The notes under the pieces were generated by a model, which ran no database searches, was not told where the DNA came from, and saw only the letters and a program-made list of their open reading frames with translations. Shown here piece by piece: positions 30,575-62,998 of a stretch of 64,000 bases of DNA (positions within the stretch are counted from its first letter, which is position 1; each line of letters starts with the position of its first letter). The DNA comes from Balanoglossus misakiensis (taxonomy: Eukaryota > Animalia > Hemichordata). Where the stretch lies: positions 2,346,783 to 2,410,782 of the forward strand of contig CM082580.2 of the NCBI GenBank assembly GCA_040954595.2. The letters run 5' to 3'. The translations under genes were made by a program, and so were the position numbers.

Positions 30575-33500
30575 TCAGGGAGTGGCTGCTAGATCAGGAC
30601 AAACGTGCGACATGTAAAGCATCAACTGTTGCGTTATGACACTATCTCGCGGCATGTGTATGTTATCCTGGGCACGGTGAGACAGAGACATGTCCCAAAT
30701 ATCGACAAAGTGGAAACCCAGGCCGCCAAATATTCGCCTCACCATTCGGTTGATGTCGTGCAGCACCCAGTTGCTGCTGTGGACTGCCTGTGTTACCAAC
30801 TCGTTGTCGCGCGGGTGGGTCATCTTGATCATGACCTTGGCCCGGGGGCATTGCGACAGCAGTCGCACGGCCGCCGTTCTGCCGGCTACAAGCCTTTCTA
30901 TGTACGCCCTGGAGGACCACGCCAGAAAATGGTAATTGATGTTCATGACCATGACGGCAGAGTTGCACGATGTCTGCCTGATCTCGTCCAAGACGTCGGA
31001 TTCAAACTGCAGGTCGCTGACTTTGCTAAATATACTGTTGCTTCCCGCCCGCATGGCGTGCTCGTGTGCGTATGTCGTGGTATTTTTACCTAATGTCAAC
31101 CCCGATCTAGCGAACTTGAATTTGGTGCGCCCTGTCATCATGAAGACCAATTGGTTGTACCACTGCCTCATCGTCGAGTCGCCTAAAAACCAAAGTGTCC
31201 GGTTTTCCAAACATCGAAACATTTCCTCCTCGTCGAACTGTTTGACTTTACACGAGGAAAAGTTGTACACCATATCACTCTCCCAATAACCATCAAAGAT
31301 TGGTACAGGAAGATCTGGTCCACACAGCGGTGGATCTGGAATGGACTTCTTCGGGGATACGTCACCTTTCCCGTTTGAACCTTCGAAGGCAAATACAGAT
31401 AATATACGGTCTCACAAAGAAGATGACAAAGGGCATACGTTTACCAATCCTCCTCCTCCTTCTGTCGTACGCCGTAGATTTTAACAAACAGATTATTGAC
31501 GACCTGATGTCATATTATGATTGCAATCAGCGGACTCTCAAAATTGCGTATAGTATTGAGCGTACATGTATTAGTATTCAATGATCATACACACAAATCA
31601 AGATGGCGTCGCCAATTGTCGGTCCGAAATGTCCGGAATGCGTGTAGGCCTTCTCTCTTGGAGAAAAGAAAGGTGAAAATATATTTACCTTTTATCTGAA
31701 TTGTGATCGGGTTGGCAGCAAATGGAACCTTCATGTAGTCACTGAAACGATAGACATAACCTGTCCATAAGAAACTAGGCGAATCTTGTTGCAAATGGTT
31801 TTCCTTTTCGTATTATTCTGTTTCTAAAATTGTTTAAATGCAGATTAATTCCTATGGTGTTTTTTGAAGAATTCCAAATTATGGGAACTCATGACTTTAT
31901 TTTCCAACTAAGATAATCCAAATAAGCTTGCTGATAGGTATACAATGTCAGTGAGCAGCCATCTGTCTTTTTTTTTGTTTACGTCTAGGGTGTATGGAAA
32001 AAGAAGACATAGTGGATGCACACTATCAAAATACTAAAAGTGATATCAATATTTACAGCCTTGTATCAGTCCCTTCGATGCTTACACTGGCTCATTCATT
32101 CATTGTTTCTCACGCCAGTTTTCAAAGCGATCACTTTACCTGCTGAAAAGGTCCATCTTTTCACTTTGGTTCATCATTTCCTCGGCACGTTTGTTCAAAC
32201 CATCGACGTCTCCAAACACCGAGGAGAGATCCTGGCAGTCGAACTTCCGGGGACGCTGGCACAGAAATACTGTTTTACCGAGCGAGGCCGGGTTCCTGTA
32301 CTCACACTGGTTTTCCCATGTGCCTTCGTTAACAGTGTGGCAGAACGTGTCCTCATTTCGCTCGTTTTCCGTTTCCCGCGCATACCGCGCTTTCCAGGCG
32401 ATCCTGTCTTCTTGGCCCCTCACGTCTGTGTTTAACCAGTGAATCGCTTCCCTCGTGAAGTAGAGTACCACTGTTATATTTGCGGGGCCCGACCACCCGG
32501 CGCCAAAGTAAACGCTGTATGTCCCGTTCCCGTAGTCGAAAACTCTCCCGGCCGTTCGGCGGTGCTCCGCGTCGTTGGACATAACGCAGAAGAAAAAATC
32601 GCCCCCTCGTCCACGCCGACGGCCATTTTTGTCCCTGGCCTCGATTACGAGGTGAATCAATTCCCCTTTGGTGAAAAACTTCTTATTTCCGTCCAGATAC
32701 ATACTGTGGAGTGATGATGAGTTTGGTGAGTGTTGACGGGTTTTTCCTTATTGTGAGAGAATCATCAGTGAATTGAATATGGAGACAGTTGGTGAATATG
32801 CAAGGGTCAGACACTAAAAGGCACCCCAAAACTTGGAGCAAATGTTAAAGGCCCGTAAAAAGACATACGCAGGTAAAATAAACCCTTATCAAGACTTGTA
32901 CACGTGCAGTCAACTGGGAAAATTCGTATATCCAGCGCCAATAAAATCTTTATGCTGTTGAAGCTATAAGCATTCAATGCCCACGCTAGTAATTGTTATA
33001 AGTTCCACGAGAAAATTGGCCAGAAAATAGTACTAACAATCGTTAGTAGTTTGTATTATAATCCATAAAGGCTACAGTGGGCAGATTTGGAAATACAACT
33101 GTACAGATAGTTTTCGTCACAACAAAATACATTGTCGTATATACCAGTTTATACGCAGCGATTACACACCTGCTTGAATTGCATGACGTAAGTCCAAGGC
33201 TACCATCGCCGATGGAATATGGCCTCTCTTTGGGGGAATTAGGACGATGATGTCCAGAGCTTTCACTTGCCCACATCAATTCATCGACCACGCCTTTCCA
33301 CTCCATTCCGTATTGTGAAAAGCTTTTGTAAGGAAACAGCAAGTCTTCCATCTTACCATGGATTGCTCTCTCAACGACAGTATCGCCCTCTACATCCTTT
33401 GCCTTTGGCACGCCTGTTTGCTCGCCCCTTCCCGTGTCTTCCGCCTCTTCGGAAGGTAATATTTCGATCGTCGCCTTCTTCTGCGGCGTTGGCATTTTTG

Positions 33501-33824
33501 GCCTCAGTGTATTGAACGCAACAGGTGCGCATGTCGGCGTAGCTTGATACAGCAAAGCGTTCTCTCGTGGGTCAATATCGGTCTGAAAATAAAAAGAAAA
33601 CAGGCCGCATATATTGTATGATTCAATTAATGTAGTGAATGATAAATTAGAGCTCATTCAGAAGTGTTGAATAAGAATAAATAGAAATGCAAATTACGTC
33701 ATACTTTGTTCTTTTTTTCACTTACCACAGTTTTCAGGCAAATGCCGATACACATTCCGAAAGCGATGTAAAGTAGCGGATACAGTTTGTGCCTCACGGT
33801 CCGAAAGACTGTTCCAAGTGTCAT
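30575..33824 (-). CDS. NXPE-like: NXPE (neurexophilin and PC-esterase domain) family protein, type II membrane anchor; 5 coding exons
   Basis: Exons 33824-33705, 33582-33170, 32703-32140, 31741-31689, 31380-30575, all GT-AG and in phase. N-terminal TM LYPLLYIAFGMCIGICL; Ig-like part with RGGDFF and DYGNGTYSV; catalytic FLGDSTMRQW and DNIH. Confidence 0.92.
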
Positions 33825-34903: not shown

Positions 34904-36597
34904 TTAATTGTTGAGGGATTTGACGAAATGAAACATGGTCACTGGCACATCTGATTTTATTTATTTATTTTATAATTCAATAAAACTCTGCTCGGAGTAA
35001 AAGAGGCTCCACATCTAAATATTTTAATACTTGTGTTATATATCCCGGTTTGTTGTGAAGATTTCATAGTCGTGTGATGTTTTGGGGGCACTTTACTCGC
35101 CCTTGGCCGTATATTGCATCATGGATCTACATCGTTTGCGTGTTTCAGCTATATCCAACCACAATAAGTCTATACGAAGTAGCCACAATGAAACAAGATA
35201 GCTTCGACACAATAGTTTTTCAATACTGCGGGTCTCTCTGTAGTATCCAACTTCAGACAGCCTGTTTTCCCCTGCCTCAGTCATCGAATGAAGTTACGTA
35301 AACACCACCGTACACCGAACTTTTACAACAACTGGAGTGTTTATCCAACGTAACATTTTAATACTTATCTGGGATTAACACATTATATGTGCAGAGGGGC
35401 GGCTGTTGGACCTATCAGAGATGTCGATGCTGCAGCTGTGACATACTAGTCTAAACACTGCACACTGCAAAATACACACGCATACACACGTGAAATATGG
35501 AGGGAGCGGTGCTCCAGTACTAGCCGCCCACGGGTATTTATTGCCTTTATAACAAAAAATAAATAAGATATACACAGTGTGATGATTTGCCAGTAGGCAG
35601 CGAAACTTACAATAAAGAAAAAACGGTCTCTTACACTACGGAAATATAAATAGCATATAGCCGCCCAGGAAAAAACACACACAAAAAATACTTTAAAGTG
35701 AAAGGAAAATGCTCTGGAAACCTGCACCCTTATCATACAAGGCTAAATATGCTGACAGGCGAAGGGCAACACCTAAACGCTGATGTAAACAAAGACAAAC
35801 AAACAAAACTGTGAGTTTGCCTAAAATAACCAGCTCTTTCCAAAAACTAGTAAGCTAGTAGACGGCACTGAAAGCGACCGCTAGAATGACTAACGCCTGC
35901 AAACCCCTGCTTATATACAGCAAGCTGAAACACCCGGCGCACATACAACACGACTCCCTTTTGGCCAAGAAACAATTCGCACCTGTTTGTGCATAAGACA
36001 ACAATTTCCCGTTTTACTGCGAATCGCGGGAAATCCAATTTAACATCGTCTCTGTGTGCGACATCACGAGCGGTTTGCACAGTATAACCAAGCAACCAAG
36101 CCGGTGTGTATCGCCTGTGGTCGTGCGTTGCTCGTGTTCATACCCGCCATGCGCTCTGAGCACAGGGATTTATTCAGGGAAAGTAGATAAACACTAATAT
36201 TGTAGAGACTAAATAAGTTTTGTTGTCTACCATTTTTTTTTCTTCTCCTGCCTTTATCTTACATGTTCGAATTGAGCACAGTAATTACATGCATAATACT
36301 AAAATGTGCTCTCTTCTGGTGAACTCTTACTACCGCCTGACCCGTCTTGTCTTATTACCCTATCCTTCCGAGCAAGACTGGAATCAGATCGATAATTTAA
36401 ACGATGGGGTTCTTCTGAACTGCACATGTGTGACTAAACACACTATCGGTATTGTTCCCACTGTTCAGGGAGACCTTGTCGAATGTTACATCAAAGTAAG
36501 AAAGTAACGACGCATTGTTTGCCACTATACAAAGTAACTACGATATTGTTTTCGTATGGGACACATACCCGCAGACGGGACGACACCCACCCTTTAA

Positions 36598-36943
36598 AGG
36601 GACAAAGTCTCTCTCTCGCTGGCCTTTTTCCATTAATTATGTTTGATACAAGACACTGTTTATGTTAATGTAAATGTGGATATATAGTGAATCAACGTTC
36701 AACCACACAAAACTTCCTTCCCACTTGTATGATATGAGAGTAAAAACTCGCCCAAAATGAATAAATGGTAAAGAACGATTATTCATTTTGGCGAGTTTTT
36801 TCACTCTCCAGTCTAAAAGAGGGATGGAAGTTGTGTGTGGTTGAACGTACATTCACTATATATCCACATGTAGAATAACAAACGTTGTCTCTTATCAAAT
36901 ATAATTAATGGAAAAAAGGGCAGCGAGAGAGAGACTTTGTCCC
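36598..36943. mobile_element. Nearly fully palindromic TTAA-flanked MITE (Kolobok-type)
   Basis: TTAA|AGGGACAAAGTCTCTCTCTCGCTG ... CAGCGAGAGAGAGACTTTGTCCCT|TTAA; the arms pair for more than 130 bp. Confidence 0.85.
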
Positions 36944-38706
36944 TTTAAGACTGGCCGCACACCACGTACACACGCCTTCACTGTGTCGCGGAATGAAGTC
37001 CATGCGTTTGAAAAGCCGTGTCTTTGATGTTGACACCTCGGACGATCTCCGCCGTCTGCTCGCACGAGTCGAAGACGGGCGATCTCATCCAACCCATGGC
37101 TTTCATTTGTATTATCAACGACAGTGCTAAGCTTGTTTCGGCGATAAATCTACTTCACACTATCAAAAAATTGACCAAAGCCGTGCCGACGCGACAAGTG
37201 ATTTTTCTTGTTTTACACTTGAGTGTGAAATCCTAGTGTCGAATGTTACGATACCCGAAAGTGTGACACTCTGTTGTCTTAAAATGATTGAAATATTCAA
37301 TGATAGAGACGTTTTAAACACGTCCCACCGCCCTTTACAACAGAAACAATTAGAACTGACCAAAGAAATCTGTCCGAAATGTCAGTTTTCCTGCGGAAAT
37401 GTCACAGACCGCCGAGAAAACAGGTGCTTGGCATGGCATGGCTAATTAAATGTTCAGGGACCGTATAATCGGATAATCCGAAATTCGGATAATTGGTGTT
37501 CGGATAATCGGCGTTCCACTGTACTAAGTTTTCTTGAGGAGTACTTGATTCTTATGATGTGATCTTCCCTAACAATCAGCAGTAGATATATTTATTTCTA
37601 TTTTATACAAACGACTTGTCTTAAACTCACAAAACTAGTATAGTTTTTAAACACTTTTGGTTGTGCTGTGCAGGCTCGCCCCAATTTAGACTCTCTCACA
37701 GCCCCTCTCGTCGTCCATGCAGGCTTATGGACTGATTGCATGTGTGCCCGCTACACAACACCACACGGTGCTTCTCCCTTGCCAAACGGTTGAGGGCGCA
37801 TAGCGAACCGTGGACTGTGAGAGAGTCTAGCCCCAAATACACCCGTGTTAAGAGAAGGCGCTTACCCCCGATAGTTGCCAACTGTCATAATTTGATTATT
37901 CTTTGTTGTGAAATTATTAGGAAAGGTGGATTCAATGAAAGGGACCTTAAAAGAGCTTGCTACTTGGGTATAAATAAGATCCCCCCAATCAAAGCGTGGC
38001 TAAACATTTCTTGGACTACTCTTGACATTGTAAAAATCAAAATAGAATGTCTTATATTGTCTATAGATTGGTTTTAACGGAGAGGGGTATTTTTTGTTGA
38101 GGTAAATAACTTTTTTGATTGAGTATATGAAGTAATACACACAGACTCAACGGTACGTTCCAGAACCACAGCTGGTGGCATAACGCGGCCAGAACGACCG
38201 ATTTTATGCGAATCTGCGCAACTCAAAGTGGCTGGGAATTCCGATCCTTAGTATACAACAGAAACGACTCTCACAATAACATTGTTGACACAGAGGCTCA
38301 CTTTAATATCCATACAAACAGAATGTACTGTGATTACTATGTGCTCGGAGAATACATATACTTAAACATAACCTGTGGCTATTTGTCGCATATTCTGGTG
38401 CGATAGTCTTTTACCCACACTAACATATTAAAAATAAAGTGATAAAAAACCACGGCAAACGTGACAGGGGTCGACACAAATTGAGTCAGTAGTCTACATA
38501 CTTCGAAATTGCAAAATTCTACCACAAACTGAATAAAATGGGTTAAACTCAATGAATTCAATCCAATATCTAACAACACAAACAAACTATTTGAATAAAA
38601 AGGCACATATACTTCTTAATCATTATCAGATTAGTTTTTTTCACGTCGCGACGTCACTTTGCGTACAGCATGATGTTGCATTTTCTTGACTTGAGTAGCG
38701 ATACGT

Positions 38707-41700
38707 TTACTCAGACGAGACCTGAAAAGTAGAAATATGCGTAGCCTGTAGTTTTCATTTCAACACAGTGACTGTATAAAGCATGCGATAAAGGTTGTTA
38801 TATGCCATGTCAGCTCATAGACAGTCTACTGTCTATGATCAGCTTGTCAACATAGCCTGCATACGCAATACGAATAAGCGAAACTTCAGCCGTTCCGACT
38901 TTGCTACTTCAAATGCGTGTATCACCAATCACAGCCGATACCCAGAAATTGTCGCCCGGGTCCCATTCTCACCTTATTTTTTGAGATTTTGCAAGTCCAA
39001 ATGCCAATACATGTACCAATCACACCCACAGACGCGACGGCAATGATCACACCCAGCACGATAATCAAAGCCAACGAAACACCAGCCTCTGTGTTCACAA
39101 AATAAAACAAAATACACGTTAAAATAGGGTGACTGGCAACGCCATCACTATGACCAGCGATTGCTTAAAGCACGCGATAAATTTTCACAGCGTAGCATAT
39201 TATACATGGTTACTACAATGGGAAAGCAAGTTATATAGACCATGAGCCAGTAGGGGTTTACCTCCCCCCCCCCCCCCCCCCCCGGGGGGAATTTTTGAGA
39301 CAATGTTTTTCTGAAAGCCTATCATATACTGAGTAAAATTCACTTTGTTTGCCATCTGGGCACCGGGGCGTTTTCGAGTTATTGGCTTCTAAATTATATT
39401 GGGTAACGTATGTAGAAATGCCTAAAAGTGCATATAAATTGACGTAGGGGGGTAAATTAGTCTTGTAAAATACTGTCTCTCTGAATGTATACCTAGAACA
39501 ACAGGGAAGTATTTGGTATCAAAAGAAAGCTTAATAAACAAGCTTTCCATTAATTACAAAATAAAAGTGATATGACAAATCATGACATCAAAGTGACGTC
39601 ATAAGTCAAAATACCCTTACGAAAATGGTGTTCTGTTCACCTATAAATGTGAGGTTTTGCAAAACACGTCTCTGAGCAATTGTACTGATGAAAACTGTGA
39701 TGTGTTTGGTATCAACAGAAAGCTGATTGAGTAAATTATCTAATTATTGCAAAAAATTGATATAATAATCAATTACGTCATCATTACGTCATACTTCCAA
39801 GTACCCTTACCAATTAGTGACTATGATGACAGGAGATAGGTGCCTTTAAATTAAAAAAATTGGTAAGGAAGGTTTGTGAAGTCCATTCTATGTAAAAAAT
39901 GGTGCTGATTCCAAAAAAGTCAGTCTTATTGACCCCACCCAAGACAAAATTGCCATTTTGGCACTTTTTAACCCAAAAAGATCATTCTTAGAAAACACTA
40001 AAAACACACTGTTTTCATCACATTCGAAGATCTGATGACATATGATATGCCTATTCTATGTAAAATTTGGTTGATATTACGACAAAAGCAGTCTGACTGA
40101 CCCCAAACGAGACAGAATTGCCTTTTTGACCATTTTTGCCCAAAAACGGCATTTTTAGACAAAACTTAAAACACACTCTTCTCTTCATATTGATTGATTT
40201 GATGATATATGGAAAGTCAATTCTATGTGTAAAATGGTGACTATAAAACATAAAGCAGTCTTTTTGACCCCAATCAATACAAAAATGCCATTTTTGGCCA
40301 CATTTTTGAGGTCAATAAAGGTCATTTTTACAAAAAAACTAAAAACAAACTGTTTTCTTCATATTCAGAGATCTGATTATGTATGAAAAGTCCATTCTAT
40401 GTATAAAAAAAAATCTGATTGACCCCATTCTAGTCAAAATTGCGTTTTTGGCAATTTATTGCCTAAAAAGACCTACTTAAGACAAATTTATCATTTTAAA
40501 CATTTTCTAGAGAAAAAAATGTTTGCATTTGGAGATAGCCCAAATTGAACTCATAATGATGATGAAACAGCTTCGAGAGTAAAAGAAGTTATACGAATTG
40601 AACCAAAGTCGCATCGATGAATCTAAACACGTCGCCCAGGACCAAGCATTGAACATGATACAGGCGACAAAAAGACAGGCACTGCACATGGCAAAGTCCC
40701 AAATATTCACTTAGAGCATCTCCAAATTGAAACGTCAAGGAATTTAAGAGTTTTTATTATATTTATTAGGTTTAAACCCACATTTTCCCGTTGTGTGCTA
40801 GTTCAGGGGCCAGTTTTAGCTCTATTGAGTATTTAGCATCGTGGGATTGCACCCCTGTCCAATCAAAATGATGGAGGTATCATGATATAATATAATTTCT
40901 GATTTTGTATTCAGAACGAAGAGGATAAATGTCAACAATCTATCCGGAGCTGGTATAGATGTACATAAAAAAATTATACCATGTATAAACGACTTATAGT
41001 ATACAGTGTGAATACATGGATCGTCTCGTTTTATTGTTGAGTTCCATTTTAGGCTAAATGTGCCAAATTGTGGCAACTCTGCCTTTCAATATCATCAATT
41101 CAACTGATATCATATGGTATGACATTTTAAATATGCAAATATAACATCAAAACTCAAAAGGCAAAAAACACAATATTGAGTGGGGTCTTAATAAGACTGT
41201 TGTGTTGGTATCAGCATATTTTTTGCAAAAAATGGACTTTCCATTCATAATCAAACATTTAAATACGAAGAAAACAGCTTGTTTTCATTTTTTCTTGAAA
41301 TGAACTTTTTGACCAAAAATGGCCAAAATGACAATTTTGTAGGGCTGAAAAGAATTTTTTTTTTGGAATCGGCTCCCTTTCAACAAAAATGGACCTTCTC
41401 CGTACATCATAAGATCTCTGAAAATAAAGAAAGAAGTTTCAAACAGTTACCTTATTTGAGCAAAGTGGCCAAAATGGCATTTTTTCCCTCTGTGGAGTCA
41501 GTAAGAGTGCTTTTTTGGAAAAATCGCTACTTTTAAGATAGAATGGACTTTTATTTATTATTAGATCACCAAAGGGGAAAAATAGCATGTTTTTAGTATT
41601 TTCTAAAAATGACGCTTTTTGGGCAAAAAGTATTTTCATCTTCATTGAGATCAATAAGATTGCTTTTTCTAGAGTCAACACCAATTTTTCAATAAATGGA

Positions 41701-44700
41701 CTTTTCATACATGATCAAATTTCCAAATATAAAGAAAACGTTTGCTTATTTCTTAAAATGGCCTTTTTGGGCAAAAACTTGCCAAAAAACGCACTTTAAT
41801 CTTGAGTGGCGCCAATAAACATACTTTTTTGAATACCTACCAAATTTAACACAGGGTGGGTATATAATACATTATCAGATCTCCGAAAGTGAAGAAAATA
41901 TATAAGTTTTGAGTGTTTTCTAAAAATGACATTTTTGGGGCAAATAGTGGCAAAAATGGCACATTTGCCTTGAGTGGGGGTCAATAAGGCTGCTATTTCT
42001 GGAATCAGAACTATTTTACATAGCATAAACTTTTCATATATCACATGATCTCTTAATATGAAGAAAACAGTTTGTTTTTAGTTTTTTTGTAAAAATGACC
42101 TTTTTTGACCTCAAAAATATGGCCAAAAATGGCATTTTGGTATTGATTGGGGTCAAAAAGACTGCTTTATGTTTTATAGTCACCATTTTACACATAGAAT
42201 TGACTTTCCATATATCATCAAATCAATCAATATGAAGAGAAGAGTGTGTTTTAAGTTTTGTCTAAAAATGCCGTTTTTGGGCAAAAAATGGTCAAAAAGG
42301 CAATTCTGTCTCATTTGGGGTCAGTCAGACTGCTTTTTTCGTAATATCAACTAAATTTTACATAGAATAGGCATATCATATGTCATCAGATCTTCGAATG
42401 TGATGAAAACAGTGTGTTTTTAGTGTTTTCTAAAAATGACCTTTTTGGGGTTAAAAAGTGCCAAAATGGCAATTTTGTCTTGGGTGGGGTCAATAAGACT
42501 GACTTTTTTGGAATCAGCACCATTTTTTTTACATAGAATGGACTTCACAAACCTTCCTTACCAATTTTTTTTATTTAAAGGCACCTATCTCCTAGGGTAA
42601 TAACTTGTCATCATAGTCACTAATTGGTAAGGGTACTTGGAAGTATGACGTAATGATGACGTAATTGATTATTATATCAATTTTTCGCAATAATTAGATA
42701 CTTTACTCCATCAGCTTTCTGTTGATACCAAACACATCACAGTTTTCATCAGTACAATTGCTCAGAAACGTGTTTTGCAAAACCTCACATTTATAGGTGA
42801 ACAGAACACCATTTTCGTAAGGGTATTTTGACTTATGACGTCACTTTGATGTCATGATTTGTCATATCACTTTTATTTTGTAATTAATGGAAAGCTTGTT
42901 TATTAAGCTTTCTTTTGATACCAAATACTTCCCTGTTGTTCTAGGTATACATTCAGAGAGACAGTATTTTACAAGACTAATTTACCCCCCTACGTCAATT
43001 TATATGCACTTTTAGGCATTTCTACATACGTTACCCAATATAATTTAGAAGCCAATAACTCGAAAACGCCCCGGTGCCCAGATGGCAAACAAAGTGAATT
43101 TTACTCAGTATATGATAGGCTTTCAGAAAAACATTGTCTCAAAAATTCCCCCCGGGGGGGGGGGGGGGGGGGAGGTAAACCCCTACTGGCTCATGGTCTA
43201 TATAACTTGCTTTCCCATTGTAGTAACCATGTATAATATGCTACGCTGTGAAAATTTATCGCGTGCTTTAAGCAATCGCTGGTCATAGTGATGGCGTTGC
43301 CAGTCACCCTATTTTAACGTGTATTTTGTTTTATTTTGTGAACACAGAGGCTGGTGTTTCGTTGGCTTTGATTATCGTGCTGGGTGTGATCATTGCCGTC
43401 GCGTCTGTGGGTGTGATTGGTACATGTATTGGCATTTGGACTTGCAAAATCTCAAAAAATAAGGTGAGAATGGGACCCGGGGGGGAGGTAAACCCCTACT
43501 GGCTCATGGTCTAATAAGGGAACTCGAGCATGACGTGCTTATGATCAGGGGACTCCACATGCAAGCAACCTAACTTTCACGCTCTGCCTGAAATCACTTA
43601 CTGTCACGCATGCTCCAACTGTGTTGATCTTTGTAAGGCAGGCACTGCAGTGTAGCATCAGTCGGGTGATGATCGCCATCAGAAAAACAGTGTCCATTAA
43701 TTTCGCAAGCAGTTTCCTAGAAAAAATGGAGACCATGTTTACATACCATAGCAAATAGTAAATTCTGAACTTCTGCTGAACACCAAAGCCCATGTATAAA
43801 GTATCAGGCGTACGTAACACCGATGAGTGAGCAATTTTATTGATGGCTCATTTTAAATTTGTCGATGCGAATCCAGAAAATAATTTTGTTTCAAATTCAT
43901 GGTCCTTTTTTCTGTATGTTGACACTCATTTCGAAACATTTCACATTGACAGAAAATATTATGTTCACTAAGTTTCAGAAAAAAATTATGCATTGAATGT
44001 ATTTATGACGCTTTGATTGTAAAGGAAACCTCATTGTCTATGCGCAGTGCAAATGCACATGGGCTATAGACACAACTTCACAGAGTGCATATGGGAAAAC
44101 GGTATTTTCCTTATTTCTTCGATTTCCCTACCTTCAGTTCACACAATCCTGCGCTGTCACATGACAAACACTTGGAGTCGTACACGGTCAGCAGCATCCC
44201 TTTGCTTGCCATGGCGCCGGCGTTGTTGCTGACATGAACACGGACAGTTGCCGAAGTCACGCCGTCTGTTTCATCAGGGTTCCCAGGCTCTACGATGGGT
44301 AGCCGCGGTCGGCAGTAAACCTCCCGAAAGCTGACGAAGAAGGTGTCAGCTTCAGCCGTGAGTTGACTGGTGGCCATCCAGCCTTCATCGTCTTCGTACT
44401 GGTGAATAGTGAAAGAGAACGATATTGATGTGATCGATGACGAAATCAGACAGAAGACAATATAAACAGAGAGTAGACAAGTATCGAGCGCGTGACAGTG
44501 GTTCAAGATGACCTCATCAATTTGTTGTAATTTACAAACCTAGCATGATTATGATTATTGGACCCGATATGACGTCACACTAACAACGTAATTATCCGGA
44601 TTCCTTACCTTTACGTGCTGGTAATGACACATGAGCAAGTCACTGTTCAGGAAGTTGTCGCCGACGAGAGAGATTGACTGACAGAAGTCATGACGTATAT

Positions 44701-47700
44701 CGCACAGACCGTGCTGTTCCGAGCCTTCAATGAACCACACGTCGGGTGGCATTGATAAATCGACAGAGCAATCGAGTCCGCCATATCCTGAAGACATAGA
44801 GGTTATTAACAGCTAGTGGTGAGAATTTTGAACGTACAACTCAGATCGACGAATATAAATGACTTGTTCTTTGATTTACAAGTGGATATTACCGGTATCG
44901 AAGTGAAGATTTGAGGCCACTACTAAACGAATTAACAAAATGTAAATACAACTTCAACCGTAATAGTTTTGTCGTTATATATTTAAGAGCTACATTTTGT
45001 CTCGGCAAAATGTCCGGATGAGCAGGTTATAATTAAACGTTTCCTCAGGCGTCGCGGTAAACGCAAGACGCCACAATATGCAAATGTATATTTCAGTTTG
45101 AAAAACCATACCGGACGTACTATGGCATGGCATATACACATAAAATATTGGTATGTTTCACGATACGATCCAAAATGGCGGCTAACGATGACGTGTGTCA
45201 ATATAGTTGCCCGTTGGGCGACGTCTTGATAGATATGGTGTTTCGATGCCATATATGGCAGATTAATACCTTCGTTACAATAGCAAACTCCATTGGTGCA
45301 GTTACCACGGTAACTACACTTCCCCGGGCAAATCGAAATTCTCAGAAACATTGGCGGTGAAAAGCTTCCAGTATCTAAAACAAAAAAAACAAAACAAAAA
45401 CTAAAACAGTTAGCCGACAAACTAATGTTTTTGCATTATTGTCGGGCAGTTTATGCTTAAAATCCTTAGCTGTCACTTTCGGACACAACAGAACATATTT
45501 AGAAGGAACAACATTCCGTGGTGTGGTCGTGATACTGGAATATCACAACGCCAACTGCAAAGACAGCCACATCTTTAACCCTTTCACCACAATGGTTTGG
45601 TCCGAATCCATTGTTTTCTTGTAAACGTGGACCTCTATAGAGGTAACTGGGGCTGAACGGGTTAATGATGTCTACAGAATGAACAATGATACTGGCTGGG
45701 GTTGACGTTAATTCTTACCATTAGAATACAGCGACACATTTTTCAAGGCGACATCTTCACAATGGTCAATCATTTCATCAACAGCCACTAACACCAGATC
45801 AAAACCATCGATTAGCTGAATAAAAGACATAATTGTATTACTGTACATGCAGAAATATTGAAAGTTCCAAGTTTATAATAATAATCCCTGGTAACTGCAT
45901 ACCGTTCGAATTAGTCTTTTTGCATTAATTTGGTGCGGACTTCTACTTTCAATAAAAAAAACGTTTATTCGTATTTTTATTTTAAACAACATAGTGGTGA
46001 ATGTTATTTCAAAGAGATGTACATAATGTTATTACGGTCACTACTTGTGAATCCAAGAGATTGCTTTTGAACTTGACACTCCAGAACTCGGAGACCAACA
46101 ATATCACTTCTGTCTTTAATTTCGATTTGAAGACGCCATCTTAATAATCAATGTTCAAATTCCCCCCCCCCCCCCGTATGCATGATGCATTGTAGTACAC
46201 TCACACCAATGTCTTCAACGCAGCCGTCGACTCCTCGGAACAAATCGACACCGGGAACATCGGCACAGTGCTCGGCGATCGGTGACTCCAAGATCTCAGC
46301 TCTACACCGATCGTCCGCTTGTTCCAAAGTTATACCGCTTGCTGTCGGCCACGTTACTTCGTCGAACTCGCTGCGTCTCTTCCTAATAACACAAGAAATC
46401 GTGGGCTTGAAATGCAAATAACTGTACGAATTCCGATACACAGACCACGTGAGAGGATGTCATGTTTGGAAGATTCGTACGTTTGTTTGCGTGAAAAACA
46501 CAATACAGTCTACAATAATTTCGCTAGATATTTGCACCATTAGAAGCAATCGCTTAAGATGGGTCCCCGGGATCTTTTTGCCCGTTGCTATGGGCCTTTG
46601 CAGGACATTACACCCCGATTTGGACTAAGCCGTTTTCAGAGTCTAACAAGGGGCTGGTAACTAGTTGAAAATCTGCACGATTGTGAGCGCGCGCCCCCTG
46701 ACGCCATTGATATGCAAATTAGCTAGGTCAAATTTCAAAAGCCTAAGGCTTTTTATTCTGTGACCTCAAAAACGAACTTGATACGTATTCATTAGTTGCT
46801 TGAACCAGGGAAGATCGTGACGGATTTTGTTTTCGAATATTATCGTTGTATCCTACGATTTCAGCATACCCGTACCTGACCTGAAAAAGTCATCGATTTT
46901 GGGTGTTTTTGGACGAACTCTTCCACCGGTATCGCTTCTTAGCACGACGAAAACCGAAAAAACGATCCGTCACACTGTGCGGAAGTGCGTTCTCAACAAG
47001 CAGGTCAAATTTGACTGGCGTACGTGGCCTATGAAAAAAGCCTTAGGGATTTTCGTGAACGGTACAAAATCTCTGTGTACAAAACATTGGATTTTTAGCG
47101 TACGTTCGATCCAGTTACTGTGGTTACAGGACGCGCACGCTATCGCTGACCGCTGCTTTGCCGTATTAGCGTGGCGGCCTATGGCCGGGCGGTAGCTGCC
47201 GTAAACATACTCGGACAGGGGGTGTGCACACAGTCGTGTGTATTTTTAACTAGTTACAAGCCCCTTGTCGGACGTTCATAACGGTTTCGATCAAAATTGA
47301 GTGTAGTGTCCTATAAAGGCCCATAGAAACGAGCAAAAAGATACAGGGGACCCATCTTAACCTTTTATACAAAAGCTTCGATTTGTCGTATATGTCTTCC
47401 GTCCATGGGTTACCAGTGTACGAATCTTATTGAATGAGACAAGGTCAAATCTGAAACGATTTTAGAGGCAATATCAAGTGCATGATATGATCATAATTGT
47501 TGATCACGAACTTCACAACCTACCTCCCCAAGGCGTTGTCAACGCTCTCTGCACCAAATTTACCGGCCTCTGGAAGGTGTGCGCGGGAACCTAATTTCGA
47601 ACGGCTGTCGTCAACCTGGCCAGTTAAGTCCGTTCCAGAGAGTTGTCGACCAATAGGGCGCCTGGCTCTGCGGCCTTCGTGGCACTCACCACCGTCTTGG

Positions 47701-53700: not shown

Positions 53701-56249
53701 CAAGTTGAATAACGTCGGATACTTACTCGGTGATTTCACAAACACCGCGAAGACATCAGCTCTGCTTGAGTTTTCTGTGTCAATACATGAAAACAATAAC
53801 AATTGATTCGTATGAATGGCGCCTGCATTATGCTACCATTATCGAGAGAAAGACTGGCCATAGTACAATGCCTGAGTGATTTTGGACAATCTTGACACAA
53901 TGGAAGATTAAGTTAATACTGCTAGTACATTGACTATCTTTTTTGCTTTTGAAATTTACGTTTACAACATTTGAAATGTTTTATCGTTCTCTACAAATGC
54001 ATAGACCACTTTCATGACCAATATATGACCTTTCATAATTGTACTTCAATTGGTATGAGGCTGTCAAGATTCAACAATTTGACAAAAGAAACGTTCAGTA
54101 CATAACTTATGTAAGGTCATTTATGGGACAAGAATATTGCCTATTATCTTTTCCTTGAAGACGAATCTTATCCGAGGTACATTTGTAATTCAATAAAAAC
54201 TTGTCCATGAAGAATTGTAGCAGCAACAAATATCTTGGTGATCGTCACATTTCAGCATATTTTGATCACATTGTAATCAAACTGATGTGCATGTGTAAAT
54301 CATAGTGCTCCGTCTTTTAGGCTTTGTCCACTTTGAAGGAAACCCCCGAAGTGCGCAAGCGCGTCAAAGTTCTGAAATGAATTCTGTTTCGATTATACTA
54401 GCCCATATTAACAGAACAATTTATTTTATATTGTTAATAGCTTCTAACACAATTAGAAATAATTTGTGATTATAAGATATTAACAAGAAAAACGCAATGC
54501 AATGAAACTGCACTGATATTTCATTATTTGTGCAAAGTGCGCTTACTTGTCTTTTTAGTACAATATGAGAATTGCATGTTTTCCCCAAAATACTGAAAGA
54601 TTGTAAATTTTCAATCGAATGTTGAAAAGATGGTCAAGATCTTATCATCATCAAAGTAGTTCATTGTCTGTGACTGACCTGACCCCCAAACTGCATAAGT
54701 TTCCAGTGTTGAAAATGTAAAATGATTTATTTTCAAGTTCTTCGGATTGTCCCACTCGCACGGCGACCTTTCCTCTCCCGTTCCGACAATCAACCATCCC
54801 GTGTCAGTTTGACAGTTATCGTACATGTAGCTCTTGTTAATGAAAAAACTCCTTCCAACCTTTCGGTGGCTGAGTAATGAAGTATCAAGATAAAAAGTTA
54901 TTTGTTTAAAGAGAGGTGAACTTCCCACTTCTTTTTTGTAATGTCCCGTAATTTCTGGAAAGTAATGGAGCCAGTCCAGTTAAAAAAAACACGATATTTT
55001 TAAGACACCTCGGCTATCTTTCGTGAACATACGGTAGCTATACCGGAATCACTCGTCCGCGACGCATGCATACACACTCCTTCGAAATACGTGTGAATCA
55101 TATACATAAAAATGTGTAAGGATAAAAAACTAAAATATATGACCGGGTGTTTGTTCAACAATACAAAACAATGATACATCTATTCAATAACCTTTGACTC
55201 ACAATTTTTCCAAGATGAGAGAGAGGGGGAGAGGGAGGCACGCAGGCAGGGAGAGAGGGGGAGGGAGAGAGAGGGAGGGAGGGAGGAAGAGAGAGAGAGA
55301 GAGAGTCCAAGCTTGATATATTCTACATTGGACGTACAAACAATAGTAGCAGTTATGCAAATACGCCCAGCCTGGCGTGAAGTGACATCTATCACAGAAT
55401 GGTCTCTAACACATCACGCGGACGAAATAAAGCCCAGCGCCATTTCCCATGATTCAAAATACAGTAACCTCTAGAGAGGAACATCCGGCAATATTTTACC
55501 CAGTTTTTGTATTTTAAAAAATCGCACTGGTTATACTTGACGAAAAAGGGTTGTCCTGAATACATGAAGCCAGCGTTAGCATTTATGTGAAAATCATCTG
55601 GATTGAACATCTTCAATACACCTTTTAGCGGCAGTTTGTCCAGCGCTGCCAAAGACAGAGCACTACAACACACTTATTGTACACGTCAGTCTGTTAATCA
55701 TGGTACGATCCAATGCGGCTGTTTCATTTGATCTGAACTCCCCTCCCCCGGGTGGGGTTGTTCAGGCAACAGCACACCGATTCTTTCACGGACTTCAAAT
55801 TAGCTTTCTGGGTCTCTCCCCTGTTTATTGTCTCAGGGACGATATTTTGCTGGTGTAGGCTTGTTGGTTTTTGGCATTTTGCACAGAGTGAAATAGACCA
55901 ACACCAATCAATCATTTCTTGTGGGGAATTCCCGATTTAAACAGCCTATCAACATGCAAACGCCTGTTGCCATGTGTCATTTATGGGGCTGTCATGAGCC
56001 ACAACGTATCAAAGAACCGCACTGCACTTTGGGATGATTAAGTGTTGGCAATCCGAGTAGAAAGCTCACTGACCTGATTCCCAAACGACTGCAGTGTTAA
56101 GTGTTGAATAGAGGAAGCGACATCCAGGTAAACTGTCATAATTACAATGTGATTTCGTACGTCCGGTTGATATCAACAACCACCCGTTGTCTGCCTCACA
56201 ACCGTCGTATCCACTTTGAATGTAAAATCTCCTCCCAACGTGGCTGTCC
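38707..56249 (-). CDS. VWDE-like: VWDE-like type I membrane protein (UMOD/GP2 Cys8 domain, VWD, EGF, TM); 5' end not found in the window
   Basis: Exons 5'->3': 56249-56074 or 54869-54679, 53774-53727, 53451-53179, 53046-52936, 52790-52725, 52118-51898, 51638-51552, 51372-51261, 49961-49759, 49506-49433, 48932-48869, 48474-48277, 48121-47913, 47817-47524, 46382-46205, 45815-45719, 45374-45270, 44787-44609, 44398-44132, 43716-43602, 39088-38973, 38721-38707. All GT-AG and in phase from 54869 onward. Motifs: WYRF..GGQMPTSC..CGTQFPGWL (Cys8); CTSRGDPHYITYDG and GLCGVFDG (VWD); [28 protein letters not shown] (EGF); LALIIVLGVIIAVASVGVIGTCIGIW (TM). Confidence 0.9.
39236..43513. mobile_element. 4.3-kb non-autonomous foldback/Academ-like element with ~1.1-kb TIRs, containing an inverted copy of flanking host DNA
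   Basis: Left terminus TAGACCATGAGCCAGTAGGGGTTTACCT at 39236; its reverse complement ends at both 43200 and 43513. TSD 'ata' at 39233-39235 and 43514-43516. Arms are 39236-~40365 and ~42055-43200, with internal ~120-bp subrepeats. Confidence 0.88.
43201..43481 (+). repeat. Inverted duplicate of 38955-39235, including the whole TM exon (43348-43463) with both splice sites
   Basis: Reverse complement of the left flank; ORF 43326-43514 (+) repeats the peptide of 38922-39110 (-). Confidence 0.93.
45579..45661. mobile_element. Tiny piggyBac-like MITE (83 bp)
   Basis: TTAA|CCCTTTCACCAC ... GGGGCTGAACGGG|TTAA. Confidence 0.55.
46558..47356. mobile_element. TTAA-flanked MITE with ~115-bp imperfect TIRs (Kolobok-type)
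   Basis: TTAA|GATGGGTCCCCGGGATCTTTTTGCCCG ... CGAGCAAAAAGATACAGGGGACCCATC|TTAA. Confidence 0.85.
48657..48819. repeat. Short inverted-repeat element with self-complementary ends
   Basis: atctgattaaaatcagatgtagagt at 48657 is mirrored by actctacatctgattttaatcagat ending at 48819. Confidence 0.7.
50064..51206. repeat. 1.1-kb compound tetranucleotide microsatellite (CACT/CACC/CATC, then GAAC) in a VWDE-like intron
   Basis: Read directly; it accounts for the THSL/THPP ORFs. Confidence 0.97.
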
Positions 56250-56682
56250 CTGAAACAGTATTATATTAGAAACGATTGTCGCATCGCGTTATAGAAAATA
56301 AGTATCCTTCCGCAGTATTTTGCGCTTGGACACCCGGAAAGCTCAAACTCGATTCAGGAATATATGTGATTAGTTATTAGAGTATTCACCCGAACCGTAA
56401 AATGATTTCCACAAAATCATATGCCGATCAACGTGTCATATATTCGAAATATAGAAGTTATCTTCGGGAATAACTGTCCGACACATAGTTTCGGGAATGA
56501 CAATAAATAACAGCAGATACTGGTTCAAGGTAGAATTATGAAAAAATAACGAAAATACTGTTATAATGGATTACACAACAGGTAAACACACGGTGTTTGC
56601 CGGAGTGTCCGTTTCGGCCAATTTTAGCAGAAATAAGTTCATGTATGTTTGAGTGATGGTTCGGACCGGAAACAATAAGAAT

Positions 56683-59447: not shown

Positions 59448-62400
59448 AGAGGTTATGTAATGGCGCCGCATGAGAGCGACATACAACACAACGTGAACAA
59501 TTTCCTTGGATTTTTGCTTTAAACAACGGCTACCAGGTATCATTTCCAGACTCAAGGTACTATGAATATGTGGTTGATAATATTCTTGTATTTAATGGTC
59601 CAAGTTTGTGGTATTGAACTGGAACGAAGATGTAAAGGAAATGAAGTGAACATCATGGTGGTTGAGCAGCAGAAGGAACGTATTCCCGGTGAGAGAATAC
59701 AATGGTCGAGATTTGAGTTATTGGATCTACGGAAAAACCGAACATATCTACAACCAGAACAAGTAAGGCTTTTGAAGGAACTCAAAATTCATAAAAGACG
59801 TAAGAGGGGTAGACCTGGCGGGAAAAAGACCAAAGAAAAAAAGGGAATCAACTTCTCAAATCTTCGATTGATAGAAGCAACAATTAACTTGCTCATGAAT
59901 AATTCCTGTCAAGTGAAAATATCCACCTGGAATGCACACTCAATCAAAAACAAAGATGAGCTTCTACGAGATCATTTGTTTAACAATACAATAGACATCT
60001 GTGTAATAACGGAAACATGGCTTCAACCAAAAGACCACATCTGGATAGAATGTTGTGATTTGAATAACAATGGCCTGTGCATGCTGTCTTCTTTTCGCGG
60101 GGATAACAGAAGAGGTGGTGGATTGAGCTTGGTCACGATGGCCTCGCTGGTTTCGGAATCGATAACATCAGCCACTTTAAGATCATTTGAATATCATCAC
60201 TGGCGGGTGAAAGGTAAAGATCTGGACTTGAATGTACTGGGTGTCTATCGACCACCTTATAGTCAACAGAATAAGTCAACGGTCAGCGATTTCATAGATG
60301 AATTTTTAATCTTACTGGAGTCGTGGCTTCCAGCAAATGATAACATCCTTATTGCGGGAGACTTTAATATCCACGTAGATAATAAAGAAGATCCAGGTGC
60401 GTGTAGTTTCATTGACAGTGTGGAAGCGATTGGATTGAAAATCGGAGTGGATTTTGCAACTCACAAAGAGGGTCATCACCTTGACTTGATAATCACTGAG
60501 AATGTGAGTCGTACCAACATCCATACAGTTAATGCCGGACCATTCCTCTCTGATCATAGAGTTGTAACAGGTGTTCTCAGTAGAGATCGTGAAGGGGTTA
60601 AGAAGAAGAAGGAGGTTGAGAGCAGAAACTTTAAGAAAGTGAATAAGGACGATTTCATTAGCGATCTACACTGCATCACCTTAGATACAAACAAAGATGC
60701 TGATTCTATATCTGACCAGCTTCGTAATGAATTGATGACAGTCGTAAATAAACACGCTCCAAAACGTATAAAAACTGTTGTCGAGCGGAATCACCACATC
60801 TGGTACAACGATGACATAAAAGAGCAGAAGAAACTACTTAGGAATAGAGAAAACATCTGGAGAAAGTATCGCCAATCTCACCAGTGGATTGCCTATAAGC
60901 GATGTAGAAACACTCTGCACTATATGATCAAAGCCGAAAAAAGAAAATCGATAAGTTCTAAGATTTTGGAGTCAAGATCAGACACTAAGAAATTATACCA
61001 AATCGTTAACAACCTAATTGGGAAAAAAGACATCAACCCAATGCCAGAAGGGAAATCAAACGAAGAACTAGCAAATGACTTTGCCGATTTCTTCCTGCAA
61101 AAAATACTCAAAATCAGAGAATCGTTGGCAAATAATAACAAATACATCTCGCCATACAGAGAAGTCCCATCTTTCCACCAATTCGAACCAGTGGATGAGG
61201 ACACTGTTGAAAAAATCATCAAAGAATTGCCGACAAAATCCTGTGAGCTGGACATCATACCAACAAAATTCCTTAAAGACGTGCTAAAAGGAATGGTTCC
61301 ACACATTACTCAGTTGATCAACGCATCTCTACAACAAGGTGTGTTTGTGAAAGAGTGGAAGTACGCAGTGGTCAGGCCGTTGCTTAAGAAGACTGGACTA
61401 GATTTGATTTCATCAAACTATAGGCCGGTCAGCAATTTGGCATTTCTGTCTAAGGTGTTAGAAAAAATAGCGTTACAACAATTTAACGAACACTGTAAAC
61501 AGAGTCAACTCTTTCCAGAATACCAGTCAGCTTATAGAGTGAATTTCAGTTGTGAAACTGCCTTGCTCAAGATAACTGACGATATTTTGTGGGGAATGGA
61601 GGAACAAAAAATCACAGCTCTTGCCGCGATCGATTTAAGCGCGGCCTTCGATACAGTGGATCACGAAGTATTGTTAAATGTTTTAAAGCAACTGTATGGT
61701 ATCGACGGACACGTATTGGAATGGTTTTCATCCTATCTGAGACCTAGAGGTTTCAAGGTATGTGTAGGAAATGCCTACTCTGACATTAGGAACATAGACT
61801 TCTCCGTACCACAAGGCAGTTGTGCGGGGCCAACATTATACAGTGTGTATGCGAGTACTCTGAGAAATGTGATACCAACATCAATTGACATACATGGATA
61901 TGCAGATGACCATGCCTTGAAACGTCTATTTCCAGCTAAGTCTAGGAGTCTGGAATTTGTAACAATGAACGATCTCGAGGACTGTTTAAAGGAGGTTAAA
62001 ATCTGGATGGATGAAAATCGGTTGAAGATGAATGACAGTAAAACAGAATTCATATGTTTTGGGTCAAGAGTACATCTGCAGAAGGTTGTGTCGAAGACGT
62101 TAACGGTCAATGAATGTGACATCGAACGGACGCCGGTGATAAAATACCTTGGCTTTGATCTCGACGAACATCTGTCGATGAGGAAGAACATCTCGAGGAA
62201 GTGCGCAATTGCAGCAGGAAATATACAAAGATTGAAGCTAATTAAACAATACTTGAATCTTGATGCAAGGAAAATCATAGCATCAGGCATGATTCTTTCA
62301 CATTTGGACTATGCTAACTCTCTTTATGCAGGACTTCCGGAATGTGACATAAAGAAACTACAGCGGATTCAAAACATGGCAGCTAAGACAATTCTGGACA

Positions 62401-62998
62401 AAAGTAAATATGACAGTGCCACCGAATGCTTGAAAATTCTACATTGGCTACCTGTGCATCTCAGAATCGATTATAAAATATGTTGTTTAAAGTTTAAATG
62501 CAATCGTAATGAAGCACCAGAGTACTTAATATCTATGTTAACTCCATCTGCAGTCAGGCGTGTAGGACTTCGGTCAAGTTGTAATTCTGAAAGTTCATAC
62601 GAGATTCCAAGAACATTTCGTAAAACCTTCGCAGATAGGGCATTCAGTGTTCAGGGCCCTAAAAGGTGGAATGGATTACCAATATGATTGAGAAAAGCAG
62701 AATCATACAAACAGTTCAAGGCAGACCTAAAAACTTACCTTTTTGGTAAATTCTAGGTGTCTGTTTCCGTTTGTAGCAGCAAGTAAATGAACACCGTTTG
62801 GGTCTATTTCACGCTGAACTGTTAGCACTTTGTAGTATGGACACTATTTGTATATTTTCATTTGAGGTTATACGTATTTTTCTCTTCTTTCTGGTAACAT
62901 GTTCTCATTTTCTTACTATGTATTTATTGTAAAGCGGATTGGATAATGGTTTTCGTTGACACTTCGCTATATAAATTAACTAATTCTAAATTCTAATT
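59448..62998 (+). mobile_element. L2/CR1-group non-LTR retrotransposon, near full length, single ORF
   Basis: Short 5' leader, EN-RT ORF, ~240-bp 3' UTR and a short-repeat tail (taattc/taaattc). Confidence 0.88.
59562..62687 (+). CDS. LINE ORF2: APE endonuclease + reverse transcriptase (1041 aa; premature stop, natural end at 62756)
   Basis: EN motifs WNAHS, ITETW, GDFN, HLDLI, SDH. RT motifs NYRPVSNL, DLSAAFDTVDH, VPQGS, YADD, KYLG. LHWLPV near the C-terminus. Confidence 0.93.
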   Translation: MNMWLIIFLYLMVQVCGIELERRCKGNEVNIMVVEQQKERIPGERIQWSRFELLDLRKNRTYLQPEQVRLLKELKIHKRRKRGRPGGKKTKEKKGINFSNLRLIEATINLLMNNSCQVKISTWNAHSIKNKDELLRDHLFNNTIDICVITETWLQPKDHIWIECCDLNNNGLCMLSSFRGDNRRGGGLSLVTMASLVSESITSATLRSFEYHHWRVKGKDLDLNVLGVYRPPYSQQNKSTVSDFIDEFLILLESWLPANDNILIAGDFNIHVDNKEDPGACSFIDSVEAIGLKIGVDFATHKEGHHLDLIITENVSRTNIHTVNAGPFLSDHRVVTGVLSRDREGVKKKKEVESRNFKKVNKDDFISDLHCITLDTNKDADSISDQLRNELMTVVNKHAPKRIKTVVERNHHIWYNDDIKEQKKLLRNRENIWRKYRQSHQWIAYKRCRNTLHYMIKAEKRKSISSKILESRSDTKKLYQIVNNLIGKKDINPMPEGKSNEELANDFADFFLQKILKIRESLANNNKYISPYREVPSFHQFEPVDEDTVEKIIKELPTKSCELDIIPTKFLKDVLKGMVPHITQLINASLQQGVFVKEWKYAVVRPLLKKTGLDLISSNYRPVSNLAFLSKVLEKIALQQFNEHCKQSQLFPEYQSAYRVNFSCETALLKITDDILWGMEEQKITALAAIDLSAAFDTVDHEVLLNVLKQLYGIDGHVLEWFSSYLRPRGFKVCVGNAYSDIRNIDFSVPQGSCAGPTLYSVYASTLRNVIPTSIDIHGYADDHALKRLFPAKSRSLEFVTMNDLEDCLKEVKIWMDENRLKMNDSKTEFICFGSRVHLQKVVSKTLTVNECDIERTPVIKYLGFDLDEHLSMRKNISRKCAIAAGNIQRLKLIKQYLNLDARKIIASGMILSHLDYANSLYAGLPECDIKKLQRIQNMAAKTILDKSKYDSATECLKILHWLPVHLRIDYKICCLKFKCNRNEAPEYLISMLTPSAVRRVGLRSSCNSESSYEIPRTFRKTFADRAFSVQGPKRWNGLPI

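Follow-up and report, generated by a model that had tools for sequence, protein, structure and literature searches.

An exact inverted copy of a host transmembrane exon between two right termini of a long-TIR element in Balanoglossus misakiensis, a likely scar of recent DNA repair

The window analysed in this study is a stretch of 64,000 nucleotides (64 kb) from the hemichordate Balanoglossus misakiensis (assembly GCA_040954595.2, contig CM082580.2, positions 2,346,783–2,410,782). On its minus strand it carries a gene for a VWDE-like type I membrane protein, the nearest named homologs of which are from acorn worms. The product features VWD, Ig_VWDE and EGF-type modules followed by a transmembrane (TM) segment; the Pfam match to VWD (E = 7.8e-6) is over the cut-off, those to Ig_VWDE, D8C and EGF are under theirs. 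A HMMER protein search yielded 17 relatives, and the representatives of six clusters that were checked are all named VWDE-like; two word-index protein searches matched 0 of 635 and 0 of 625 candidates. The tblastn exon map of the window comprises at least 15 exon matches to homologs, and an unbroken frame of 1054 codons is present.

The intron of interest is preceded directly upstream by a cysteine-containing exon at 43602–43716 (minus strand, 115 nt, ending in phase 1), which was located by tblastn of homologs. The TM exon at 38973–39088 (minus strand, 116 nt, phase 1 to phase 0) is delimited by its AG/GT borders and its frame, and a hydrophobic stretch was found at its place in 8 of the 11 homologs examined. 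The likely last coding exon, predicted at 38707–38721 (minus strand) from a strong acceptor, consists of four codons and a stop; the two best homologs end in a similar short tail.

The intron harbours a non-coding element of 4.3 kb with inverted arms of about 1.2 kb, which is a long-TIR DNA transposon. Its left arm (39236–40420, plus strand) contains a run of 20 C at 39264–39283 and 167-bp repeats at 39879–40409, its centre (40421–42002) is AT-rich with partly degenerate 168-bp repeats, and its right arm (42003–43200, minus strand) contains a run of 19 G at 43154–43172. The longest stop-free frame within the element has 113 codons, and no transposase source was seen for it. A 19-bp terminus occurs in three exact copies, at 39236 (plus), 43200 (minus) and 43513 (minus), with a chance expectation of 0.01. 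The right terminus is present twice, as the first-pass annotation had stated: an inner, apparently copied one closes the right arm at 43200, and an outer one at 43482–43513 (minus strand) has a length of 32 bp, or 35 bp including an overlap. The trinucleotide ATA, likely a target-site duplication, adjoins both 39236 (39233–39235, plus strand) and 43513 (43514–43516, plus strand), in agreement with the ends assigned earlier. Since this ATA and unique right flank adjoin the outer terminus, it appears to be the original one, and 43482–43513 is probably all that is left of the first right end.

Ends of the form GACC...GGTC with a TA duplication are likewise compatible with the sequence. The ATA match would then be a coincidence (p about 0.03), so that TAG...CTA ends with an ATA duplication are favoured but not proven. 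Academ elements have TAG...CTA ends and long TIRs. A target-site duplication of 3–4 bp is given for AcademX in the accessible part of PMC10045372, which the 3-bp ATA would fit, but the TA parse is also possible, other superfamilies also make 3-bp duplications and this element has no transposase; the accessible part of PMC5753468 holds nothing on Academ end sequences. Metagenome matches to the terminus were rejected, as at all three loci they covered only 23–24 bp inside an unrelated repeat.

Of five sequencing runs listed, none is recorded as RNA; contigs of four of them (X1–X4) were compared over 37500–45500. The X1 depth ranges from 12,064 to 32,716 in bins of the element centre and from 156 to 547 in bins of the unique flank, a difference that hints at a multicopy family while giving no copy number. 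X1 and X2 contigs carry other flank alleles. X3 and X4 each contribute 17 pieces of low depth, the loose ends of which are unrelated; no inference on habitat or distribution is drawn from them.

Between the two right termini, 43201–43481 (plus strand) is the reverse complement of the host segment 38955–39235 (plus strand), with 281 of 281 positions identical. The donor segment comprises 18 nt of the downstream intron, the TM exon and 147 nt of the upstream intron up to the insertion site. The copy contains the whole 116-nt exon with both splice sites, and its exon part (43348–43463) is antisense in the host pre-mRNA. The earlier description of this stretch as inverted left flank including the entire TM exon holds in full, the identity of the exon being borne out by frame, splice borders and the hydrophobic stretches of homologs. 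Within the 64-kb window, over which the comparison was made, 38955–39235 is the only source of the copy.

The return junction is a GGG at 43479–43481 (plus strand), common in register to the host copy and the outer terminus. It had been placed at a shared CCCGGG. This motif is indeed present at 38955–38960 and 43151–43156, but the overlap in register amounts to GGG (3 nt) only, and a return over six bases would apply only if 12 G had been lost or the original run had been short. The outer G-run counts 7 G, compared to 19 in the inner right arm; the junction falls in the 3′ part of the run, of which 4–7 G are kept. Among the contig matches listed from the four runs, none spans the new junction, so the structure rests on the assembly, and the empty-site join is also absent among them; a further 38 joints, 397 loose ends and 3702 pieces lie beyond those listed.

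Comparison of the arms revealed 0 substitutions in the outer 434 bp and 16 events in the next 695 bp, where the difference is 2.3%. The probability of such an outer tract is 2.6e-4 for uniform placement and 4.6e-5 at the inner rate, and in 100-bp bins the identity changes as a step, not as a slope. The sole difference of the outer arms is the length of the homopolymer (C20 versus G19). A higher identity of the outer portion had been noticed before, and the gradient proved significant (P about 3e-4); the first substitution is at 39670/42767, as noted then, and the indel recorded as about 14 bp has a length of 13 bp and is located at 39831. The lack of substitutions in the outer arm versus 2.3% further inward makes arm-to-arm copying in this element a well-supported reading of the sequence. 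The tract copied from the left arm would extend at most over 42768–43200 (minus strand), which shows no substitutions relative to 39236–39669. Outer-arm identity could also stem from constraint, as reported in Galileo for its terminal 100 bp (PMC4168063, accessible part), which counts against the tract argument.

At the partner sites 39419/43018, both arms share a letter that is found in no X1 contig aligned there (depth with the other letter 185.2 of 185.2 and 4764.6 of 4764.6), as predicted by arm-to-arm copying of a private mutation. Site 39591 shows the same tendency, but X3 and X4 contigs carry the letter of the window. This comparison is based on incomplete, filtered contigs, and X2 has no contig at 39419/43018. 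Over 346 positions, the donor region of another individual's allele shows 8 letter differences and 6 gap positions. The copy is exact (P of 0 in 281 = 0.0015), indicating that it would be younger than this allelic divergence.

Taken together, the structure is likely the scar of a recent DNA repair event and not of transposition. We consider it rather probable that a break at the 19-G run was repaired from the left arm with an overshoot and then closed by microhomology end-joining. Replication would have stalled at the right-arm 19-G run, which is capable of forming a G-quadruplex, and the resulting break would have left only 32–35 bp of the terminus on its right end, with its left end somewhere in the outer ~430 bp of the right arm. 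By strand invasion or fold-back, the left end may have paired with the homologous left arm, extension would have run outward, crossed the left terminus and continued for 281 bp in host DNA, and the tip would have been joined to the stub via GGG/CCC microhomology in the style of polymerase-theta end joining. Annealing over the 35-bp terminus with trimming of the overshoot would instead have resulted in a silent arm-to-arm conversion. The central proposal of the first-pass annotation, that synthesis in the right arm switched to the left arm, overran into host DNA and returned by microhomology, gains support from the identity gradient.

The return point is located at the 3′ edge of the 19-G run, a feature absent from that annotation. 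Its position suggests the run as the trigger, the chance that a random break falls in the run being 4.4% within the outer 434 bp and 1.6% within the arm. However, the outer 434 bp offer 18 GGG registers, 17 of them within the G-run, so that even with no stall a GGG tip on the host side would end up there. One X1 contig, from another family copy, joins 42941 to 43172 and has a deletion of 230 bp that extends to the final G of the run; this joint belongs to a weak class (one contig, 29-base side) and was chosen after the fact as 1 of 15 among the joints listed, with 38 further. It fits the signature of G-quadruplex deletions, for which the accessible part of PMC4654259 reports 3′ junctions within 3 bp of the motif, 5′ junctions about 50–300 bp off and, at times, templated inserts. 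In C. elegans, end-joining of an over-extended SDSA strand is a model for tandem duplications (PMC8654963, accessible part). The worm G-quadruplex events share with the present locus a breakpoint on the 3′ side of a G-tract, templated DNA and a microhomology of a few bases (PMC4654259, PMC8654963). Their products are deletions or direct tandem duplications, whereas the duplication is inverted here because the donor is an inverted repeat; their junctions are 0–3 bp from the motif, slightly less deep than here, where 4–7 G are kept (PMC4654259). The animals in both papers are helicase-mutant worms.

Whether the trigger was the G-run, excision-gap repair or a fork switch cannot be told from sequence alone. 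That the same path was set off by transposase excision or by a break-free fork switch is possible, though we regard it as unlikely; it is nearest to the account given in the first-pass annotation. After an excision, the gap might have been refilled from the sister chromatid, the long strand folding onto its own left arm and running into the flank, and the short right-flank strand would have been joined to the long strand by microhomology. The product is identical to that of a G-run break, gap filling induced by breaks and excision as well as fork switching are described for TIR elements, and breakpoints near the termini, as found here, are expected from excision repair (PMC8277862, accessible part). 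A multicopy family, hinted at by a depth that gives no copy number, is also consistent with this explanation. Yet excision requires about 3.5 kb of resynthesis ahead of the fold-back, arms that differ by 2.3% are not those of a fresh insertion, a transposase source was not seen, and excision alone leaves the second breakpoint at a G-run edge, in X1, unaccounted for.

An artefact of library or assembly, i.e. a fold-back chimera at a long hairpin with the G-run in the consensus, is improbable. The 100% identity of copy and source would suit it, as would the absence of the junction from the contigs listed from other runs and the apparent lack of this copy's private letter in X1; being from other individuals or haplotypes, X1 and X2 say little by their silence on the junction. 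Long inverted repeats and homopolymers are difficult for polymerases, and both are present at the locus. On the other hand, the new adjacency has an overlap of 3 bases only and leads back to the right flank that belongs to this locus. Neither overlap nor k-mer assembly can create such an adjacency, which counts against an artefact, and a fold-back molecule would presumably require a second switch. The window seems accurate, judging from the exon matches and the long unbroken frame, and no other near-perfect fold-back of at least 200 bp was found in the 64 kb (next best 90.6%). Alternative transposition with hybrid or reversed ends, comparable to maize Ac composite insertions, yields inverted flank duplications beside element ends, as partly described, but is very improbable as the origin of the one seen here. 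In such a reaction the exact end of an element is linked to a fresh target, which is duplicated in the process. At this locus every terminus borders a former flank of the element, the inner one meeting the old left flank and the outer one the old right flank, while the sole new junction is 32–35 bp inside the terminus and has no new duplication, so this explanation is largely refuted. Simple recombination between the arms was rejected, as it would invert the centre and copy no flank.

Capture by template switching is already published for TIR elements in the form of Pack-TIR gap filling (Tan et al. 2021, PMC8277862, accessible part). In Pack-TIRs, 100–5000 bp of non-TE sequence separates two portions of a single TIR element, with no less than 10 bp of a terminus in each; here, 281 bp are enclosed by 39236–43200 and 43482–43513. 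A parental copy of at least 90% identity and a length ratio of 80–120% is present (281/281), but it abuts the left terminus, whereas Pack-TIR parents are without a TE within 100 bp. The survey pipeline dropped cases with a TE at most 100 bp from the parental copy, so the present configuration would have been removed (PMC8277862). The locus works like a single-copy Pack-TIR, yet is outside the published set. Single-copy Pack-TIRs have a median filler of 224 bp, similar to the 281 bp of this locus, and a median microhomology of 2 bp, which is short here too, and share with the locus a source less than 5 kb away in cis, a captured exon and restriction to a single locus (PMC8277862). They differ in that the filler here borders on the opposite end of the element itself, that the breakpoint is at the terminus and not internal, and that entry was via long TIR homology instead of a second microhomology, leading to the duplicated terminus. 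Ssk-FB4 (FoSTeST) is likewise a non-autonomous long-TIR element with repetitive arms that captured coding sequence by template switching; it moved and multiplied with distinct target-site duplications, whereas here no move is seen and one small exon is involved (PMC8277862). No report of the exact configuration was found in the literature, of which older P-element and maize work was thinly covered; the supplements of PMC8277862 may hold similar cases.

The way in which TIR elements take up host DNA is mostly deduced from copies that are old and decayed, while at this locus every step can be read, from the conversion tract in the arm through the copying past the terminus to the short return junction. 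The locus links arm homogenisation in long-TIR elements and flank capture as two outcomes of a single repair event. The duplicated terminus around an inverted flank is a signature for which long-read genomes can be scanned, and this class was excluded by the main animal survey (PMC8277862, accessible part). The finding concerns one allele in one assembly and known repair processes, and there is no sign that the captured exon ever moved. Its mobilisation, suggested in the first-pass annotation, is doubtful because the complete inner right end competes with the outer stub of 32–35 bp. As a more speculative proposal, which we hold only tentatively, a G-run near the ends of long TIRs might be a built-in, recurrent route of flank capture, with alleles that are filtered from surveys, are maybe common and act in introns as cis-antisense splice switches. 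If so, a single mutation turns a membrane protein into a secreted one at this locus.

A direct prediction for the host gene is that the TM exon is lost in an allele-specific manner. With an antisense copy that matches exon and splice sites perfectly in the same pre-mRNA, skipping would be favoured on the captured allele. Skipping is predicted to add three new residues before a stop codon within the last exon, and thereby to result in a protein without a membrane anchor. The computed energy of the duplex of exon and copy (−545.8 kcal/mol) merely restates the perfect match, and by itself the donor region does not fold unusually as RNA (z = −0.61). Inverted sequences that form a long RNA duplex alter exon use (10.1101/2025.03.07.642063, accessible part). 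The locus resembles the Alu pairs of that study in its long pre-mRNA duplex; the Alu-flanked exon is looped out between the two Alus, whereas here the exon and its splice sites would be inside the stem.

A self-comparison of the window yielded a single long near-perfect inverted repeat (38955-40420 versus 42003-43481), with 96.9% identity across 1483 columns. It includes an AT-rich long-TIR DNA transposon of 4278 bp from outer end to outer end (39236-43513; left arm 39236-40420, right arm 42003-43200), with 167-168-bp tandem repeats in each arm. Three occurrences of the 19-bp terminus, at 39236 (+), 43200 (-) and 43513 (-), compare with 0.01 expected, and ATA is found immediately outside both 39236 and 43513. 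The stretch separating the two right termini (43201-43481) matches, base for base in reverse complement, the host DNA left of the element (38955-39235), which contains a TM exon (38973-39088, -). The first arm difference is located at 39670/42767, and the differences include a 13-bp indel at 39831. Outward of 39670/42767, the arms differ only in a homopolymer (C20 vs G19). Self-comparison and terminus search bore out the coordinates that the first-pass annotation had assigned to the ends, ATA, the inverted copy and the arm differences.

Stop-free frames in the element never exceed 113 codons, so it is non-autonomous. Its ends probably read TAG...CTA, a feature of Academ elements. A TA-duplication parse of the ends also fits, the ATA match then being due to chance (p about 0.03). 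A 3-bp target-site duplication is compatible with AcademX in the available text of PMC10045372. Contig depth on the element was far above flank depth in two runs, which hints at a multicopy family without giving a copy count. Three metagenome contigs (L001:5999-6022, L002:2167-2190, L003:1079-1102) have an unrelated repeat in common with 23-24 bases identical to the element terminus, which may reflect chance or distant borrowing.

Arm identity changes inward as a step. The outer 434 bp are free of substitutions, while the remainder of the 1130 bp compared holds 17 events (P = 2.6e-4 under uniform placement). With no substitution across 715 bp, the upper bound on divergence is 0.42%; the inner arms differ by 2.3%, more than five times that value. 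The allele of a second individual departs from the donor region at 8 letters and 6 gap positions out of 346, so the copy is younger than this allelic split (P = 0.0015). At partner sites 39419/43018, both arms share one letter here and all contigs of run X1, another individual or haplotype, that align there carry the other (filtered X1 contigs only, without X2 coverage), which fits a private change having been transferred from one arm to the other. Counter to a copying tract, terminal constraint by itself can raise outer TIR identity, according to excerpts on Galileo (PMC4168063). Runs X3 and X4, from a second organism, also count against it in carrying the window's letter at 39591. Each gave 17 low-depth element pieces on 39000-43200 whose long loose ends are unrelated; cross-contamination may be the source.

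The return junction had been placed at a shared CCCGGG. The in-register overlap is GGG only, with the host match reaching 43481 and the terminus match starting at 43479. A CCCGGG register requires either the loss of 12 G or a right run that was 7 G long to begin with; a short original run is conceivable because the inner terminus was itself copied from the left end. Four GGG sites occur in the first 300 bp of flank and CCC precedes the used one only, which lends mild support to a six-base overlap. Within the G-run, a target of 1.6-4.4%, the junction falls on the 3' side, although the run also accounts for 17 of the 18 outer-arm GGG registers. In a second copy of the element, 230 bp seem to have been lost, with the outer breakpoint at the final G in the terminal G-run and a 29-bp end remaining: one X1 contig joins 42941 to 43172 (29-base side; among the 15 joints listed, with 38 more beyond these). 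Deletions at C. elegans G-quadruplexes have their 3' junction <=3 bp from the motif and their 5' junction about 50-300 bp off, occasionally with templated inserts, in the portion of PMC4654259 available; polymerase theta joining of over-extended SDSA strands yields duplications there, as excerpted from PMC8654963.

Judged from assembled sequence, the structure is likely a real, very recent repair scar on one allele; none of the contig rows listed for the comparison runs spans its junctions. We favour, at slightly better than even confidence, a break in the right arm at the G-run, after which the left end would be extended on the left arm as template, past the element into host DNA, and joined to the right-terminus stub (43482-43513) via microhomology. 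An identical copying path started by excision or a fork switch would give the same product and is a reasonable but clearly less probable origin. An artefact is improbable: the new adjacency at the junction returns to the correct place, the window sequence looks accurate, and no second fold-back of this kind occurs in the window. Least probable is alternative transposition, which fails because no terminus gained a new neighbour.

This case can be compared to the 370 animal Pack-TIRs of Tan et al., mostly single-copy and attributed to gap filling that favours cis sources and uses short microhomology (PMC8277862). Size, distance and junction are alike. Here, by contrast, the filler is entered via the element's own opposite arm, a terminus is duplicated and the parent adjoins the element, a configuration excluded by rule from that survey. 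No account of this exact form was found in a literature search, with older P-element and maize work mostly beyond its reach. Pack-TIR capture itself is already known; new is this likely form of it, seen in a single allele, whose path can still be read and whose predicted effect on splicing can be tested.

The host gene encodes a VWDE-like protein on minus-strand exons running from past 53000 to 38707. VWD scored above the Pfam cut-off, with weaker matches to Ig_VWDE, D8C and EGF. A one-exon HMMER search gave 17 relatives, and the representatives of the 6 clusters looked up were VWDE-like proteins from Ptychodera flava and Glandiceps talaboti, so the source animal is probably hemichordate or nearly related. 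Phase 1 is shared by the end of exon 43602-43716 and the start of exon 38973-39088, which itself ends in phase 0; a short, likely last exon starts at 38721. A hydrophobic segment directly follows the same module in 8 of the 11 homologs examined and is absent in 3. Exon phases and these segments place the element in the intron immediately upstream of the TM exon, lengthening that intron from 232 to 4513 nt. Two similar open frames without Pfam match (54614-54979 and 56069-56260, -) are probably exons for a repeated domain near the start of this gene.

Exon mobilisation is doubtful. The outer end retains 32-35 bp and the inner end is complete, with subterminal repeated motifs behind it, so a transposase would likely prefer the inner end. 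Splicing is the nearer predicted effect. In the pre-mRNA, the TM exon would be paired without mismatch by an antisense copy that also covers its two splice sites and the entire upstream intron remnant; with the arms included, the stem would reach about 1.47 kb. If the TM exon is skipped, three new residues and then a stop inside the last exon are predicted, giving a protein without anchor.

A second very young duplication is found at 2714-3684 (~480-bp tandem, 99.2% identity). Three smaller inverted-repeat elements (9058-9881, 36594-36948, 46554-47360; arm identity about 90%, 83% and 78%) are possibly MITE-like. An NXPE/neurexophilin-family gene with large exons occupies 30578-33657 (-; Pfam NXPE4_C E=4.2e-41, Neurexophilin E=1.3e-10). 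The unbroken 1054-codon frame at 59523-62684 (+) presumably encodes, as judged by eye, a non-LTR retrotransposon endonuclease and reverse transcriptase.
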